This document shows, in pieces, positions 43,983 through 48,292 of a DNA stretch of 48,292 nt. Numbering within the stretch: position 1 is the first letter of the stretch; the number at the start of each line of letters is the position of its first letter. Both the position numbers and the translations under genes were made by a program. Source of the DNA: an uncultured Bdellovibrionales bacterium (GTDB lineage Bacteria > Patescibacteriota > Minisyncoccia > Moranbacterales > UBA1568); NCBI GenBank assembly GCA_964508015.1, contig CAZDRG010000001.1:1-48292 (forward strand), written 5' to 3'. Below the pieces are notes generated by a model, which ran no database searches, had not been told where the DNA came from, and saw only the letters and a program-made list of their open reading frames with translations.

Positions 43983-44012
43983 ATTGCTCCGCCTACTGAA
44001 CACTATTAGAAC
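43983..44012 (-). repeat. 30-nt intergenic element, copy E
   Basis: - strand GTTCTAATAGTGTTCAGTAGGCGGAGCAAT. Confidence 0.6.
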
Positions 44013-44085
44013 CTCCATACAAGAGGATAGAGCCTCAAAGTTCTACTACTTCGGGCTAAAGAAGTTTATGGAACAAGGTGTGTAA

Positions 44086-44114
44086 GATTTACTCCACCCT
44101 GCCACTCACTATAT
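44086..44114 (-). repeat. direct repeat, left copy (21-bp perfect core 44094..44114)
   Basis: ccaccctgccactcactatat is identical to 48178..48198. It covers the last codons (IVSGRV-E-stop) of the HTH gene. Confidence 0.75.
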
Positions 44115-44307
44115 TTCCAATTTCATACTCAACCCTTGCAACAATCTGCCTGACCCGCGTCCCGCTGATATGAAATTGGCTACCACACTCATCCAAAGAA
44201 TGCTTTTCGCCATTAGCCAGGCCGTGCCTATACTCAAAAATATCCAAGTATCTCGGCTTGAGCCTCAGCACATTCTTATAAGATTTGTATTCTTCTAGAA
44301 TGTCCAT
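44089..44307 (-). CDS. stand-alone sigma-70 region-4-like HTH protein (72 aa)
   Basis: LDIFEYRHGLANGEKHSLDECGSQFHISGTRVRQIVARVEYEI resembles the region 4.2 pattern (RfGL...tL.EiG..fgvTRERVRQIe). Start taken at MDILEEY, downstream of the Fic stop. Confidence 0.55.
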   Translation of the reverse strand: MDILEEYKSYKNVLRLKPRYLDIFEYRHGLANGEKHSLDECGSQFHISGTRVRQIVARVEYEIGNIVSGRVE

Positions 44308-44323
44308 AGTAAACCAGGCTTCA

Positions 44324-45385
44324 TTACAGCTTCCGATACCTCGTGCTCCGACCTGAACCGATTTTTTCAATCCTCTCCACCTTGAGAAGCCTGGTAAGAG
44401 CTTGGTTGACCGTTGGTCTGACAACTCCAGTCTTCTCCGCAATTTCTGATGGTGTGGCTTCTGAAACACCCTGAATATACTCCCAGACAGCAAGTTGCTT
44501 GGGAGAAAGAAGTTTTTCTATCTGCTCACTTTCCATCAGTTCCAGAGCTAGTTCGGATTGTTTGAGGAGCATCGTGAGAAAAAAATCTAACCAAGGAGTG
44601 ATGTCTTCTTTTTCTGTTCCAAAACTCTTCTGGCTTCTTCGCAAAGCGATGTAATAGTTCTCCTTGTTGTCCTCAATCAGCTTTTCGTGAGAGACATAGG
44701 GCGCATAGGCATAATCCTTTTTGAGTAAGAGAAGATTCGTCAAAACGCGAGAGAGTCTGCCGTTACCATCTTGAAATGGATGGATTCTCAAAAACTCCAC
44801 GATGAAGTTGCCAATCACGAGAAGTGAATGGATTTTCTTCTCTTCCAAAGCAGTGAGTGTAAAGCTCACCAGTTCCTGCATCTTCTTCGGGGTGAGATAG
44901 GCGGGCGTTGTTTCAAAGACAACTCCAATTTCCTTACCCTCTGTATCGAACATTTTGACCAAGTTTTCCCCTTTCTTGTATTCTCCTCGGTGTCGTTCGT
45001 CCTTTTCCACATACTTCAAAAGCTCTTTATGAAAATGCTTGATGGCACTCTCACTGAAAGAGAGGGCTCTCCAGACATCAAAGACATTGCTAAGCAGTTC
45101 ATAATACCCCTGCACTTCCTGCTCGTCTCGACTCTCCCACTTCCCAGGCTTTACGCCCTGAATGAAAGACTCGACTTCTGCATCAGAAAGCTTAGAACCC
45201 TCAATACGAGTGGATGCTCCAGAAGAAGTTACGAGCACTGATTTTTTCAGGCGAATCAAAATCTGGGGACTCAATTTCAGTCCACCAGTCCACCGCCCCT
45301 TGATTTCATCAATTTTTGCTATTTTAGCCCAGATTTCCCCTGGTAAAAGGGTGAATCTAGCTTCAAACTGGCTGTTATTCTCCAT
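44324..45385 (-). CDS. Fic-domain protein with C-terminal winged helix
   Basis: Fic motif HPFQDGNGRLSR, plus a C-terminal wHTH (ATPSEIAEKTGVVRPTVNQALTRLLK). Confidence 0.85.
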   Translation of the reverse strand: MENNSQFEARFTLLPGEIWAKIAKIDEIKGRWTGGLKLSPQILIRLKKSVLVTSSGASTRIEGSKLSDAEVESFIQGVKPGKWESRDEQEVQGYYELLSNVFDVWRALSFSESAIKHFHKELLKYVEKDERHRGEYKKGENLVKMFDTEGKEIGVVFETTPAYLTPKKMQELVSFTLTALEEKKIHSLLVIGNFIVEFLRIHPFQDGNGRLSRVLTNLLLLKKDYAYAPYVSHEKLIEDNKENYYIALRRSQKSFGTEKEDITPWLDFFLTMLLKQSELALELMESEQIEKLLSPKQLAVWEYIQGVSEATPSEIAEKTGVVRPTVNQALTRLLKVERIEKIGSGRSTRYRKL

Positions 45386-45436
45386 AATCTTATATAATAC
45401 TATGACTATATAAGATTATATGAGATTGTATAAGAT
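45386..45436. promoter_or_regulatory. inverted/direct TATAAGAT repeats between the RT stop and the Fic start
   Basis: aatcttatata (45386..45396) and tatataagatt (45407..45417) form a perfect 11-bp inverted repeat. A third tataagat lies at 45429..45436. Confidence 0.4.
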
Positions 45437-45439
45437 AAG

Positions 45440-46558
45440 TCAAATTGTAACCTCACCTTCTAAAAGACTGTCTTCAATCCTCTTCCGCAGCTTATACCCA
45501 TTCCCGTGCCGCAGAAGACCGAGATAAGACTCAACCGTTTCCCGCTTACCCTCCTTCTCACGGATATTCCGAAAGGCTCTGTTTTTGGTAACAGTGCGCA
45601 ATACCCGATGGTCTGGAAAGTGCGTCCATCCGAGAAAGTCCACGCCAGAAGCCACCGTCTTGATGAACACCTTATCAGGATGGAGCTTGAGACCCAGACG
45701 AAATTCAAGAAAAGCGCTTATCTGCAAGAGAGTTGTTTTCAATTGTCCCTTATCATCGGAAAATATCACAAAGTCATCAGCGTAGCGGATATAGTATTTC
45801 GCCTTTGCCTGATGTTTCATAAATTGGTCAAACTCGTTCATATAGACGTTTACCAGAAGTTGAGAGGTGAGGTTGCCGAGTGGTAAGCCCTTGCCTCTCT
45901 CTGTATGAAAGCTCCCAATGATTTCTGAAAGGAGATTAAGAATATCTTGGTCAGGAATATGCTTTTTCAGGATACTAAGCAGAACATCCTGGTCAATGGA
46001 AGCAAAGAACTTCCTTACGTCGCATTTGAGCGCCCACACAGTCCGTGTGTGATTATGGGAAGCCTTGCGAGCAAAGCTACGGAAGCGGTCAAGAGCCTTA
46101 TGGATTCCTTTATCATTTCGGCAAGAGTAAGAATCGGCAATGAACAGTCGGTCAAAGAAAGGATAGAGAATGCGGTAAATGGCACGATGGACTACTCTGT
46201 CTCTCACTCGCGCTTTATGGATATTTCTGGGCTTGGGGTCGGAGATGCTAAATGCTTCGTAGCGGGAGTGGCAATAGGTTTTGGAAGCGAGTTCCCGATG
46301 GATTGCAAGAAGGTTATCTGCGAGATGAAGTTCAAACTCTTCCACGTCTTTGCGTTTGTGTTTCCCTCGGATAAACTCTTTCCACGCCTCAAGGAGATTT
46401 TCGGGAGAAATGATATGATGATAATTGTCCGATAATTTTACTTTTTCCTTATGCCTACTTTTAACACCCCCCCCCCGCAGGTCTTGCCTCTTTTGCAAAG
46501 GCTCAAGGCCGTTTATCAATTGTGGCACAGCACGGTTGCACATATTCCAAAACTTCAT
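45440..46558 (-). CDS. DGR reverse transcriptase
   Basis: 372 aa with RT motifs including PLGNLTSQLLVNVYM (the DGR-type [IL]GxxxSQ) and YIRYADDFVIF (YxDD). TR/VR pair adjacent. There is no in-frame ATG/GTG/TTG closer to the conserved N-terminus (IISPENLLEAW), so the start at 46558 or 46543 overlaps avd. Confidence 0.85.
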   Translation of the reverse strand: MKFWNMCNRAVPQLINGLEPLQKRQDLRGGGVKSRHKEKVKLSDNYHHIISPENLLEAWKEFIRGKHKRKDVEEFELHLADNLLAIHRELASKTYCHSRYEAFSISDPKPRNIHKARVRDRVVHRAIYRILYPFFDRLFIADSYSCRNDKGIHKALDRFRSFARKASHNHTRTVWALKCDVRKFFASIDQDVLLSILKKHIPDQDILNLLSEIIGSFHTERGKGLPLGNLTSQLLVNVYMNEFDQFMKHQAKAKYYIRYADDFVIFSDDKGQLKTTLLQISAFLEFRLGLKLHPDKVFIKTVASGVDFLGWTHFPDHRVLRTVTKNRAFRNIREKEGKRETVESYLGLLRHGNGYKLRKRIEDSLLEGEVTI

Positions 46559-46828
46559 CGTTACACATTTGGAGGGAAAATAGACAAGCTCTTTCTTGAG
46601 GTATTAGAAATTGTTTTCCGAGCACAATACGCCAAGCCAGCAGAGAAGCTTCAATACCTGATTGCGGGGAGCGGCAAAATTGACCTGCTCAAATTCTTTC
46701 TCCAAATAGGATGGGAGAGTAAGTTGATTGATAATAAAAAATACCTCGCACTTTCCACTGAACTCCAGGAAATCGGGCGGATGCTTGGTGGTTGGAAAAA
46801 AGGCTTAGAAACAAAACTCTCGCCCTAA
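46451..46828 (+). CDS. avd: Avd-like four-helix-bundle accessory protein
   Basis: 125 aa with LPLLQRLKAVYQLWH..PKLHRYTFGGKIDKLFLEVLEIV...KIDLLKFFLQIGWESKLIDNKKYLALSTELQEIGRMLGGW, the pattern of four-helix-bundle (23S rRNA IVS/Avd) proteins. Encoded on the strand opposite RT and TR. Confidence 0.75.
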   Translation: MPTFNTPPPQVLPLLQRLKAVYQLWHSTVAHIPKLHRYTFGGKIDKLFLEVLEIVFRAQYAKPAEKLQYLIAGSGKIDLLKFFLQIGWESKLIDNKKYLALSTELQEIGRMLGGWKKGLETKLSP

Positions 46829-46837
46829 AGACGAGAG
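46817..46837 (-). other. small hairpin 15 nt 3' of TR, spanning the avd stop
   Basis: ctctcg-N9-cgagag followed on the - strand by ttttgtttc. Confidence 0.3.
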
Positions 46838-46851
46838 AAACTTTACACGTG

Positions 46852-46967
46852 GCCTGGGCAGAGAACCTGGTTGTCAGCGTTCCAGTTGCCATTCTCGTCG
46901 AGCTTCCAGTCGTTGACGTTCCACTTGCGGTTGTCGGAGTTCCAGTTGACATTCACGGCGAAGACTT
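46852..46967 (-). repeat. DGR template repeat (TR)
   Basis: Ungapped 116-nt alignment to 47306..47421 (offset 454). In the target frame it encodes VFAVNVNWNSDNRKWNVNDWKLDENGNWNADNQVLCPG, with AAC/AAT codons at the variable sites. Confidence 0.85.
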
Positions 46968-47191
46968 TGTGCCTTGAACCATCCGTTCCACCACCCCTCG
47001 ACTACTCTTGGGGTTGTATCGTATGCGGGACATAGAAGTCCACCAGTTCAAGACACCAACGCATTATATTTTTTTGAAAATAAAACGACACGCTGACTGA
47101 AGACCCTTTCCGCAATCATTCTGGCACATTTCACTTCCAGTATCCTGACCTTTCAGCCGTAGCCGAAAGAAATTTCCAACATACCTTCTTC

Positions 47192-47200
47192 ATTATATCA
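47192..47200 (-). promoter_or_regulatory. extended -10 (TGaTATAAT), candidate TR-RNA promoter
   Basis: - strand tgatataat lies directly after the target-gene terminator, about 225 nt upstream of TR. Confidence 0.35.
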
Positions 47201-47245
47201 AAATAAAAAGACCCGAGGAATCTGCGATGCAGTTTCCAAGGGTCT
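47201..47245 (-). terminator. terminator / post-VR hairpin of the DGR target gene
   Basis: - strand agacccttggaaactgc-atc-gcagattcctcgggtct followed by tttttatttt, about 60 nt downstream of VR. Confidence 0.65.
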
Positions 47246-47290
47246 AAGAGACTAAGCGTCCAAGGGTCTTTTGCCCAATGGACTGAAGGG

Positions 47291-48010
47291 TCAGAGTGCC
47301 GCGTTGCCTGGACAGAGAACCTGGTTGCCAGCGTTCCAATTGCCATCCTCGTCGAGCTTCCAGTCGTAGACGCTCCACTCGCGGTTGCCGGAGAACCAGC
47401 GGACAAACACGGCGAAGACTTCACCGTTTTTGCCCTCGACGTAGAAGATGTTCGCGTAGCCGTTATTGAGCAGGAAACCCGACTTGCCGTTGGGCTGTGC
47501 TTCGATGAGGCCTGCGATGTCTTCCAGCGTGGACAGGTGGGTTTCCGGCAGTTCCTTGCGGATGTCCTTGTCGTAGGCGTTCGCTTTGAGGAGCGAGGCC
47601 ACATAGGGACGTTCGGGAGCCGAATCCACCGTCTGCCTGGCGCTCAAGTCGAGGCGGTCTGCGAACGTGTCGTAGACGTAGAGGCCGGTGCCGGTCTGGT
47701 AGAACTCTGCCGCATTGAAGGGCTTTGTCCTGGCCGGAACGGTTGACTTGCTGACAGGCTTGAGGAGCCTGGTTTCAGCGAGCACCGGGTAGCGCGAGCT
47801 CAACTGCTTGAGAGCGTTGATGGTTGCCCGTTCGATGGCAACCTTGAGCTCGTCGCCGCGCACGATGACCAACTGGGCACCGTCCTTGTCGAGAAAAGTC
47901 GCTTGAGCTACTGCCGTTTTGGCGGCGCTTTCAGCGGCATCCGCGACGAAACGCACGAGTTGCTTGTCCTGTCCTGGCGTAATTGCTGACGTGATTGACT
48001 GTGTCATCAT
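47291..48010 (-). CDS. DGR target (variable) protein, 239 aa
   Basis: ATGATG start with AAGGAG 5 nt upstream. VR occupies the C-terminal ~40 residues. No hydrophobic signal or TM segment seen. G+C-rich. Confidence 0.8.
   Translation of the reverse strand: MMTQSITSAITPGQDKQLVRFVADAAESAAKTAVAQATFLDKDGAQLVIVRGDELKVAIERATINALKQLSSRYPVLAETRLLKPVSKSTVPARTKPFNAAEFYQTGTGLYVYDTFADRLDLSARQTVDSAPERPYVASLLKANAYDKDIRKELPETHLSTLEDIAGLIEAQPNGKSGFLLNNGYANIFYVEGKNGEVFAVFVRWFSGNREWSVYDWKLDEDGNWNAGNQVLCPGNAAL
47306..47421 (-). repeat. DGR variable repeat (VR)
   Basis: Encodes VFAVFVRWFSGNREWSVYDWKLDEDGNWNAGNQVLCPG. It differs from TR at 14 positions, 12 of them TR adenines. Confidence 0.85.
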
Positions 48011-48084
48011 CGTCTCCTTTGTCAAAGAAAATCCCCTGGATGCCGGGAATCGAGGCAGTCGGAAGCTTTCACTTACAACCCATA

Positions 48085-48113
48085 ATTATACACCTTTTTA
48101 GGCTTGGTGTCAA
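48085..48113 (-). promoter_or_regulatory. promoter TTGACAcc-N17-TATAAT for the DGR target gene
   Basis: - strand reads ttgaca ccaagcctaaaaaggtg tataat. Confidence 0.6.
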
Positions 48114-48121
48114 TACAAAAA

Positions 48122-48141
48122 AGAGGCTCTACAAAGCCTCT
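48122..48141 (-). terminator. terminator hairpin (AGAGGCTT family) of the upstream partial gene
   Basis: - strand agaggctttgtagagcctct followed by tttttg, 8 nt before the -35. Confidence 0.6.
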
Positions 48142-48168
48142 GAAAAACCCATTTATGCTATTTTCGAT

Positions 48169-48198
48169 GATTTTACCCCACCCTGCCACTCACTATAT
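48169..48198 (-). repeat. direct repeat, right copy (perfect core 48178..48198)
   Basis: Identical 21-mer to 44094..44114. It covers IVSGRV-G-stop of the partial ORF. Confidence 0.75.
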
Positions 48199-48292
48199 CC
48201 AAGAGCTGATTCGGGTTAGCTTTCAGGTCAATGAGGATGAACTTGTCCAAAGCCCCTTTTTCAATCAAGACACTCTTCTCTCCTTCAAATTG
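48173..48292 (-). CDS. 3' end of a hypothetical gene (partial, runs off the window)
   Basis: Open frame ...QFEGEKSVLIEKGALDKFILIDLKANPNQLLDIVSGRVG-stop, followed by a terminator. Confidence 0.4.
   Translation of the reverse strand, partial: QFEGEKSVLIEKGALDKFILIDLKANPNQLLDIVSGRVG

Follow-up and report, generated by a model that had tools for sequence, protein, structure and literature searches.

A complete, probably functional diversity-generating retroelement with a repeat tract in its inverted avd gene in Candidatus Moraniibacteriota

Results

Organization of the locus

The window analysed here is a stretch of 48,292 nt from a Candidatus Moraniibacteriota (CPR/Patescibacteria) chromosome. 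It carries the parts of a diversity-generating retroelement (DGR) in the order target gene with the variable repeat (VR), structured RNA and template repeat (TR), inverted avd (accessory variability determinant), and reverse transcriptase (RT). Target, VR, TR and RT all lie on the − strand, and avd on the + strand. The features are as follows.

45440..46558, − strand: reverse transcriptase; maximal ORF of 372 aa; RVT_1 match at 7.7e-26
46435..46464, − strand: promoter-like site on the RT strand, directly downstream of the G-run; TTAAAA-18-TAAAAT, 9/12, a consensus match only
46451..46828, + strand: avd, 125 aa, opposite to the strand of VR, TR and RT
46467..46476, both strands: homopolymer tract; reads C10 in avd, over codons 6-9 ('PPP'), and G10 on the strand of the RT
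46807..46837, − strand: 9-bp hairpin (46837..46817) plus TTTTGTTTCT, beginning 10 nt 3′ of TR
46848..46967, − strand: TR, 120 nt, with 33 A in its 116-nt core
46968..47060, − strand: conserved structured RNA of ∼93 nt with three covarying helices, directly 5′ of TR
47206..47272, − strand: inverted repeat followed by a T-run, 3′ of the target stop codon; function predicted
47291..48010, − strand: target gene, 239 aa, ATG at 48010, AAGGAG ribosome-binding site
47302..47421, − strand: VR, target codons 198-235, nine of them recoded relative to TR
48085..48113, − strand: promoter-like site for the target gene; TTGACA-17-TATAAT, 12/12 consensus matches

The order target-TR-(avd on the opposite strand)-RT was found in 79/79 related loci, all of them with avd inverted. 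We first suspected the inverted avd to be a novelty and then dropped the idea, as TR-(avd)-RT is already known as architecture B3, typical of CPR DGRs and defined in Wu et al. 2018 (PMC5758913); CPR/DPANN DGRs form DGR clade 2 of Roux et al. 2021 (PMC8144416). Having TR, reversed avd and RT in this order in a Patescibacteria genome, the locus belongs to B3 and thus adds one more member to a catalogued class of CPR DGRs. The first-pass annotation was silent on the avd inversion, on the lack of an obvious RT start codon and on the fact that this architecture had been catalogued for CPR bacteria. We found no fundamental difference between the element and CPR/DPANN DGRs, with which it shares the avd inverted between TR and RT, a cellular Patescibacteria host, a target lacking recognizable domains, signal peptides and transmembrane segments, the occurrence of some non-A substitutions, and further target paralogues elsewhere in the genome.

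Neighbouring genes are cellular and encode aminoacyl-tRNA synthetases, PBP2 and a histidine kinase. A 27-nt direct repeat flanks the cassette (44088-44114 / 48172-48198), and an att-site duplication was considered for it; no integrase is present. One of the two copies coincides with the 3′ end of an upstream gene, conserved and HAD-like, which also precedes the targets in two related loci (L012 and L017).

TR and VR differ at template adenines

On the − strand, 46967..46852 and 47421..47306 aligned gap-free over 116 nt with 14 mismatches, and our recount reproduced the first-pass count throughout. Twelve of the 14 carry A in the 46.9-kb copy and G, T or C in the 47.3-kb copy (+ strand positions 46874, 46893, 46914, 46919, 46926, 46934, 46940, 46941, 46946, 46947, 46952 and 46953). 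The other two (46858 and 46885) are synonymous changes from C in TR to T in VR (TGC/TGT, Cys233; AAC/AAT, Asn224). As described before, nine codons are recoded, from N/N/N/D/K/N/N/N/D in TR to F/R/F/G/E/S/Y/D/G in VR. The 33 adenines among the 116 nt of TR sit mostly in AAC, AAT, GAC and AAG codons, and the enrichment of mismatches at TR adenines held on recount (hypergeometric P=3.1e-6 for at least 12 of 14 on A). The repeat proved slightly longer than first noted, at 120 nt (46848-46967 / 47302-47421). TR/VR identity is 88%, with non-synonymous differences at adenines only. TR lies 454 nt downstream of VR, outside any credible ORF, and is the sole TR-like copy within the 48-kb window. On the 3′ side, 46 nt of invariant homology stop at a fixed difference, A in VR and C in TR (GGCAACG vs GGCCACG), that is conserved in six loci; we looked at this difference as a possible distinction of the IMH/IMH* type.

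RT and Avd are homologues of the Bordetella proteins

The LGNLTSQ and YADD motifs noted earlier are both present in the RT ORF and align to the Bordetella RT (bRT), and the ORF is intact through all motifs. The best PDB relative was bRT itself (8ub7_A, E=3.9e-45, residues 48-347 aligned), whereas the best group II intron RT match reached only 2e-23. The fingers motif LPLGNLTSQL aligns to IPIGSLTSQL of bRT. By its PDB match and this motif, the RT is assigned to the DGR clade. Conserved RT sequence begins at residue 48 (46417), and the first 108 nt of the ORF overlap avd in antisense. Between the tract and residue 48, no ATG, GTG or TTG occurs in the subclade of the window; in-frame starts exist upstream and are not conserved as an ORF in the related locus L006. 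The Avd-like ORF was likewise borne out: it matched PF22296 (bAvd) at 8.1e-15 with 55.7 bits, against a Pfam gathering cut-off of 40, and NCBIfam NF033474 (DivGenRetAVD) at 5e-19 with 68.5 bits, under the cut-off of 80.

These matches also bear on the view that the two repeats are an ordinary partial gene duplication which diverged by drift, the RT beside them being of retron or group II intron type and having nothing to do with them. Such an origin would accommodate the two C-to-T mismatches off adenines, and the top NCBIfam match of the RT is a group II intron RT by name, albeit far under its cut-off. It is at odds with the adenine bias (P=3e-6), which recurs in 10/10 gap-free TR/VR pairs from related loci (e.g. 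20/20, 20/20, 20/21 and 16/17), with bRT leading the structural-database matches by 22 orders of magnitude in E-value, with the presence of Avd, and with an Rfam search over 44000-48292 whose sole match was a chance lncRNA and which returned no intron or retron RNA family. We regard a partial duplication as effectively refuted.

Variability of the target is confined to TR-adenine codons

VR lies at the 3′ end of an intact ORF, in agreement with the earlier proposal that the C-terminus of the 239-aa protein is the diversified site. The protein is helical in its N-terminal region and has an alpha/beta domain at the C-terminus, in which VR resides, and the inverted repeat with its T-run at 47206..47272 is probably the terminator of the gene, judging from its position and sequence. 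The target has 189 homologues, of which the named ones are hypothetical proteins of Candidatus Moranbacteria/Moraniibacteriota; its sequence matched nothing in Pfam, NCBIfam or PDB. Searches by exact protein sequence gave no match for the target, Avd or Fic of the window. An AF2 model of the full protein had a pLDDT of 78.8, and the model of the C-terminal domain had a pLDDT of 78 and a pTM of 0.79, with only one of five models confident. Foldseek searches of both models against PDB and BFVD yielded nothing below E=0.08, the best E in PDB being no better than 0.087, and DGR variable proteins and C-type lectins were absent among the best 50 matches listed per search. For this reason we refrain from naming the VR domain a C-type lectin: the models suggest a domain with no detectable fold of this kind. 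This negative is weak, and with a single confident AF2 model among the five we make no claim to a new fold.

Among 78 full-length target homologues, entropy exceeded 3 bits only at TR-adenine codons, and the residue spectra fit A-to-N changes (GAC to D/G/V/A, CAG to Q/R/P/L). The restriction of variability to TR-A codons was also seen within the closest 90%-identity cluster.

That the element is a relic, in which recognizable parts persist, the target is no longer diversified and TR and VR differ only through activity in the past, draws support from the recurrence of identical target proteins, VR included, in three to six contigs for several relatives, which implies that VRs are often static. 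The unclear RT start codon and an avd ATG that in most related loci does not share the frame of the Avd core point the same way. Against this stand the RT ORF of the window, with all its motifs, and its avd, which is in frame; the 88% TR/VR identity with an adenine-only pattern of non-synonymous differences; and VR sites with as many as 10 different residues within one 90% cluster, where most other sites show only two or three variants. We consider a relic improbable. Taken as a whole, the locus is best explained as a complete and probably functional DGR, a reading in which we have high confidence; each defining component proposed by the first-pass annotation (TR/VR adenine bias, RT, Avd and VR within an ORF) was tested and found.

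Structured RNA on either side of TR

The RNA element directly 5′ of TR was recovered in 65 of 68 loci by iterative nhmmer. RNAalifold predicted 23 pairs, 18 of them with compensatory changes; 95.2% of cells were paired, compared with 75.0% in shuffled alignments (0/500 shuffles reached 95.2%), and paired cells fell to 32-47% when the partners were slid. Its 12-bp closing helix stops 3-4 nt short of the start of the TR/VR homology. A TATAAT at 47068..47063, just upstream of the element and a candidate part of a promoter for the TR RNA, is conserved only in the near subclade. The element had no match in Rfam, and we found no description of it in the DGR literature compared, a coverage outside of which lies Paul et al. 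2017, reportedly the first survey of CPR/DPANN DGRs.

On the other side of TR, the 9-bp hairpin straddles the avd stop codon of the opposite strand and recurs in 47 distinct related sequences, in which the sequence of the stem varies. With its U-tract it is terminator-like, and could instead be an Avd-binding stem-loop by analogy with the Bordetella DGR, whose Avd-binding stem-loop just 3′ of TR it resembles in position and 9-bp length. Such 9-bp stem-loops just 3′ of TR have been described for 207 DGRs (bioRxiv 10.1101/2023.10.23.563531).

The layout of the RNA departs from that of Bordetella, in which TR is followed by a 140-nt structured spacer with the priming adenosine and an RT-binding stem-loop. 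In the window, TR is followed only by the 9-bp hairpin and U-tract before the antisense avd, and the large conserved structure is on its 5′ rather than its 3′ side. A structured non-coding segment 5′ of the reverse-transcribed template, within one small RNA, is also a feature of retron msr-msd RNA. This is a resemblance only: there is no sequence or Rfam relation, the RT of the window falls into the DGR clade, and a retron product accumulates as msDNA whereas a DGR product replaces a gene segment.

A simple repeat tract in the 5′ coding region of avd

The C10/G10 tract is the only G/C run of at least 9 nt within the 48-kb window. A homopolymer or other simple repeat is kept at this place in 75 of 78 loci, five of which have non-homopolymer tracts in the same position, namely (CTGG)9, (GT)8 and (GA)7 to (GA)>12. 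Tract lengths are evenly spread over the three residues mod 3, i.e. regardless of reading frame. They also vary between otherwise identical sequences: two contigs, L088 (G10) and L092 (G8), have 0 mismatches over 5,771 nt and differ only by 2 nt in the tract, L120 (G11) and L121 (G10) differ in tract length, and five loci with an identical 30-nt flank have lengths of 8, 9, 10, 11 and 11. An ATG-initiated frame is open into the tract in 75/75 loci. In the window, the avd ATG is in frame at the present length (C10); across the related loci, where it is mostly out of frame with the Avd core, the frames are distributed 17/34/24, and a canonical in-frame start of avd is lacking altogether in 31 of 70 loci. 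The ATG upstream of the tract is antisense to an RT histidine codon. Of 54 loci, 53 use CAT for it, where the background is 60%; by this codon usage, the antisense avd ATG is under selection.

Contingency loci of Haemophilus, Neisseria and Campylobacter undergo phase variation by slipped-strand mispairing. As in avd, their repeats (homo-, di- or tetranucleotide) lie a few codons past the start, vary in length out of frame and differ between otherwise identical sequences. Contingency loci control surface or restriction-modification genes, whereas here the affected gene encodes a cofactor of a mutagenic retroelement, and the switching is predicted from sequence in uncultured CPR hosts. Since tract length varies with no regard to frame, even between otherwise identical contigs, the tract suggests a phase-variable switch. 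We infer that the C10 tract sets whether Avd is made, and that changes in repeat length turn mutagenesis on or off.

Alternatively, the tract may be conserved as an N-terminal Pro-Pro-Pro of Avd or as a G-rich ribosome-binding or promoter element of the RT, its length differences being assembly noise. The tract does read PPP in the Avd frame, lies ∼13 nt upstream of the RT ATG in typical loci beside an SD-like GAGGA, and shows a near-uniform frame distribution, as expected of a non-coding tract; moreover, sequencing of homopolymers is error-prone. These explanations are harder to reconcile with the five loci that swap the run for a di- or tetranucleotide repeat, the even spread of lengths over residues mod 3, the loci lacking any canonical in-frame avd start, the selected antisense ATG, and the contig pair that is identical but for 2 nt in the tract. 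A function other than a switch is possible, but we are inclined to doubt it. In the literature on homopolymers, simple sequence repeats or phase variation together with DGR or Avd, we found no description of a tract in avd (Paul et al. 2017 again lying outside the coverage).

Discussion

A working model

On the reading of the locus as a functional DGR, an RNA would be made from the − strand that spans TR (120 nt) together with the 93-nt element on its 5′ side and the hairpin on its 3′ side. RT together with Avd would copy TR into cDNA, misincorporating opposite template adenines, and the cDNA would take the place of VR in the 239-aa target gene, at its 3′ end. This could recode as many as 18 adenine-containing codons, at alternating positions of the C-terminal beta-strands, and the interleaved V/W/S/R/L/G scaffold of these strands would stay fixed. 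That the transfer runs via cDNA, that it requires Avd and what each RNA element does are carried over by analogy from the Bordetella system, and on the same grounds the 5′ helix would serve as a stop for reverse transcription. The hypermutable repeat, which follows the avd start by a few codons and sits within the divergent 5′ end of the RT gene or just upstream of it, would put Avd stochastically in or out of frame, such that at any time the target would be diversified in a subpopulation only. For the clade at large, we see about even chances for the joint proposal that an avd repeat stochastically gates mutagenesis and that the DGR RNA is laid out unlike that of Bordetella.

The prototype of these elements is the DGR of Bordetella phage BPP-1 (mtd-avd-TR-brt), to whose RT (E=3.9e-45) and Avd those of the window are homologous. 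Both transfer sequence from TR to VR with adenine specificity, and both have VR at the 3′ end of the target. They differ in that the window avd is on the opposite strand, in place of the 140-nt spacer RNA, that the window element resides in a cellular host rather than a phage, and that neither the sequence nor the predicted fold of its target shows a detectable relation to Mtd.

Significance

The DGR itself is an ordinary further example of a catalogued class. What goes beyond the first-pass annotation are the avd tract, the 5′ structured RNA and the 3′ hairpin with its U-tract, and we see more value in three side results. The target family has ∼190 members, no annotation and no detectable C-type-lectin fold, and its variable residues alternate along the beta-strands. 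We regard it as a candidate new scaffold able to accommodate massive variation. The 5′ RNA element is a defined candidate DGR RNA in a setting where avd fills the place of the Bordetella spacer, and its layout bears on the priming and stopping of reverse transcription beyond one model system. To our knowledge, how cells restrain DGR hypermutation is poorly understood. The repeat-length switch in avd, if true, would offer a simple and testable answer for this CPR clade, and would explain why many assembled CPR DGRs seemingly have no intact avd or RT ORF.

Adenine-directed divergence between TR and VR

Recounting the gapless alignment that the first-pass annotation had claimed between 46967..46852 and 47421..47306 (both − strand) gave the same 14 mismatches, 12 of which have A in the 46.9-kb copy, the template repeat (TR), and G, T or C in the other, the variable repeat (VR) of the target gene. 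Because the TR contains 33 A among its 116 nt, the chance that at least 12 of 14 mismatches fall on A is 3.1e-6; the enrichment at TR adenines withstood the recount. The two other mismatches are, as described, synonymous C-to-T changes, and the nine recoded codons read as claimed (TR: N, N, N, D, K, N, N, N, D; VR: F, R, F, G, E, S, Y, D, G). The full repeat is 120 nt, longer than first given; no third copy exists in the 48-kb window. Just past the final shared base the VR has A (47305) and the TR has C (46851; GGCAACG versus GGCCACG). This fixed difference is shared by six loci and is the probable 3′ limit of cDNA transfer.

Features of the element and its neighbourhood
48113..48085, − strand, sigma-70-type promoter-like site for the target gene, perfect consensus match
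47291..48010, − strand, target ORF of 239 aa (ORF prediction)
47060..46968, − strand, structured RNA of ~93 nt directly 5′ of the TR, conserved in 65 of 68 related loci
46837..46807, − strand, 9-bp hairpin plus TTTTGTTTCT (U-tract), 10 nt 3′ of the TR
46451..46828, + strand, avd, above the Pfam bAvd threshold
46467-46476, C10 (avd strand)/G10 (RT strand) tract in avd codons 6-9, situated at the diverging 5′ ends of avd and RT
45440..46558, − strand, reverse transcriptase (RT) ORF, RVT_1 match
44324-45385, − strand, Fic-domain protein with C-terminal winged-helix domain, directly downstream of the RT

Both the observation and its interpretation as a diversity-generating retroelement (DGR) were upheld. 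As claimed, the RT carries LGNLTSQ and YADD, and both align with motifs of its closest relative of solved structure, the Bordetella phage DGR RT (PDB 8ub7_A, E=3.9e-45, residues 48-347); the best group II intron RT match was 2e-23. The proposed Avd-like ORF is also present, with a score under the NCBIfam equivalog cut-off, and sits between TR and RT on the strand opposite to both. A genome scan returned 38 loci; avd or RT adjoins the target in 13, and each of these shows the arrangement target-TR-(avd)-RT. Scanning metagenomes with the RT as query added 80 further loci, and avd was inverted in 79/79 loci having both genes.

Variability and fold of the target

As evidence for DGR activity, variability was measured in an alignment of 78 full-length target homologues, in place of reads. 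The 12 codons templated by AAC, AAT or AAG showed an entropy of about 2.9-3.5 bits, GAC codons yielded D/G/V/A, GAG codons E/G/V and CAG codons Q/R/P/L, while the V, W, S, R, L and G positions between the variable codons were almost invariant. The same pattern was seen in 15 members of the closest 90% cluster, and adenine bias was found in each of the 10 TR/VR pairs of related loci that align without gaps (e.g. 20/20, 20/20, 20/21 and 16/17). Identical target proteins recurred in 3-6 contigs each for several relatives, which counts against constant DGR activity.

The homologues are hypothetical proteins, the named ones from Candidatus Moranbacteria/Moraniibacteriota. The target sequence had no match in Pfam, NCBIfam or PDB and no visible signal peptide or transmembrane segment. 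In the AF2 model the N-terminal region is helical and is followed by an alpha/beta domain (pLDDT 78.8; domain model pTM 0.79), with the VR on the last four strands of the domain. Foldseek searches of PDB and BFVD with the AF2 models produced no match under E=0.08, and the matches listed include no DGR variable protein, a negative that is weak because only one of five models was confident. G+C content is 55% in the target-gene region (47001-48000) and about 44% elsewhere in the window.

In other genomes, paralogues of the target, 234 aa long and without a nearby RT, lie directly after parA-parB (related loci L125-L128 and L134-L139), and one genome can have as many as three copies of the target (L001/L011/L016), pointing to diversification in trans or to dormant copies.

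RNA elements flanking the TR

From the target stop to the TR, six loci share 85% identity; their RT proteins are 66-89% identical. The predicted fold of the 5′ RNA has three helices and 23 pairs, of which 18 show compensatory changes; 95.2% of cells were paired, a level that 0 of 500 shuffles reached (75.0% in shuffles), and slid controls gave 32-47%. The 12-bp helix that closes the element stops 3-4 nt ahead of the TR/VR homology. By analogy we infer that this helix would serve as a stop for reverse transcription, a role likened to that of the "cPRT Stop" duplex of the Bordetella DGR, which halts reverse transcription (bioRxiv 10.1101/2023.10.23.563531).

The 3′ hairpin, which on the opposite strand overlaps the end of avd (its C-terminal codons and stop codon), is kept with differing stem sequences in 47 distinct sequences across the clade. 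It could terminate the TR RNA ahead of antisense avd; alternatively, it could be an Avd-binding stem-loop, as reported just 3′ of the TR for 207 DGRs. The RNA elements matched no Rfam family.

Between the probable target terminator and the 5′ RNA, block 47110-47185 (−) is almost invariant in six loci, with TGATATAAT ahead (about 47205-47197) and an ATG ORF of 9 codons inside.

A homopolymeric tract at the avd/RT junction

The C10/G10 tract is the sole G/C run of at least 9 nt in the 48-kb window. Other C runs of at least 7 nt are only C8 (27872-27879) and C7 (41023-41029), both inside − strand ORFs. Among 78 related loci, 70 carry a run of 5-12 G at this junction, with lengths spread evenly over the three residues modulo 3, and in five of the remaining eight the position is taken by (CTGG)9, (GT)8 or (GA)n. 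Length differs between near-identical contigs: over 5,771 nt, L088 and L092 differ solely in the tract (G10 vs G8), L120 and L121 have G11 vs G10, and five loci sharing one 30-nt flank have lengths of 8, 9, 10, 11 and 11.

An ATG-initiated frame enters the tract in 75/75 loci and matches the Avd-core frame in only 17; a canonical in-frame avd start is absent in 31/70. The avd ATG is antisense to a conserved RT His codon, which is CAT in 53/54 loci against a background of 729 CAT vs 496 CAC, a codon bias that points to selection on the ATG.

On the RT side (46417-46558), the maximal RT ORF runs antisense across the first 108 nt of avd; no ATG, GTG or TTG lies between the G-run and the conserved N-terminus in the window or its subclade, and in L006 an in-frame stop breaks the same 5′ extension. 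Typical loci have the RT ATG about 13 nt downstream of the tract. We give roughly even odds to the tract being a contingency-type switch on Avd; in the window it is in the in-frame state. Alternatively, it may encode a PPP motif in Avd, take part in ribosome binding or promoter function, or be a site of slippage, ribosomal or transcriptional.

Genomic surroundings

The remaining window genes are cellular housekeeping genes. A 27-nt direct repeat (44088-44114 and 48172-48198, 26/27 identical) flanks the whole cassette, which comprises the target, TR, avd and RT together with Fic and a small HTH gene. Recombination or insertion may have left this repeat as a scar; there is no integrase. One copy forms the 3′ end of a HAD-like gene, which also precedes targets in L012 and L017, and the other ends an ORF resembling sigma-70 region 4. 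Fic adjoins the RT also in L006 (Fic 90% identical) and L140, and L025 has a Fic of 96% identity after a target paralogue that lacks an RT.

The target-TR-(avd)-RT order is architecture B3, reported for 90% of DGRs of ultra-small CPR bacteria (Wu et al., 2018; PMC5758913), and CPR DGRs have been placed in clade 2, with targets lacking recognizable domains (Roux et al., 2021; PMC8144416). The window element therefore belongs to a known kind, and as a DGR it is ordinary among CPR bacteria; what merits follow-up is the repeat tract, the 5′ RNA and the VR scaffold, which is unclassified.
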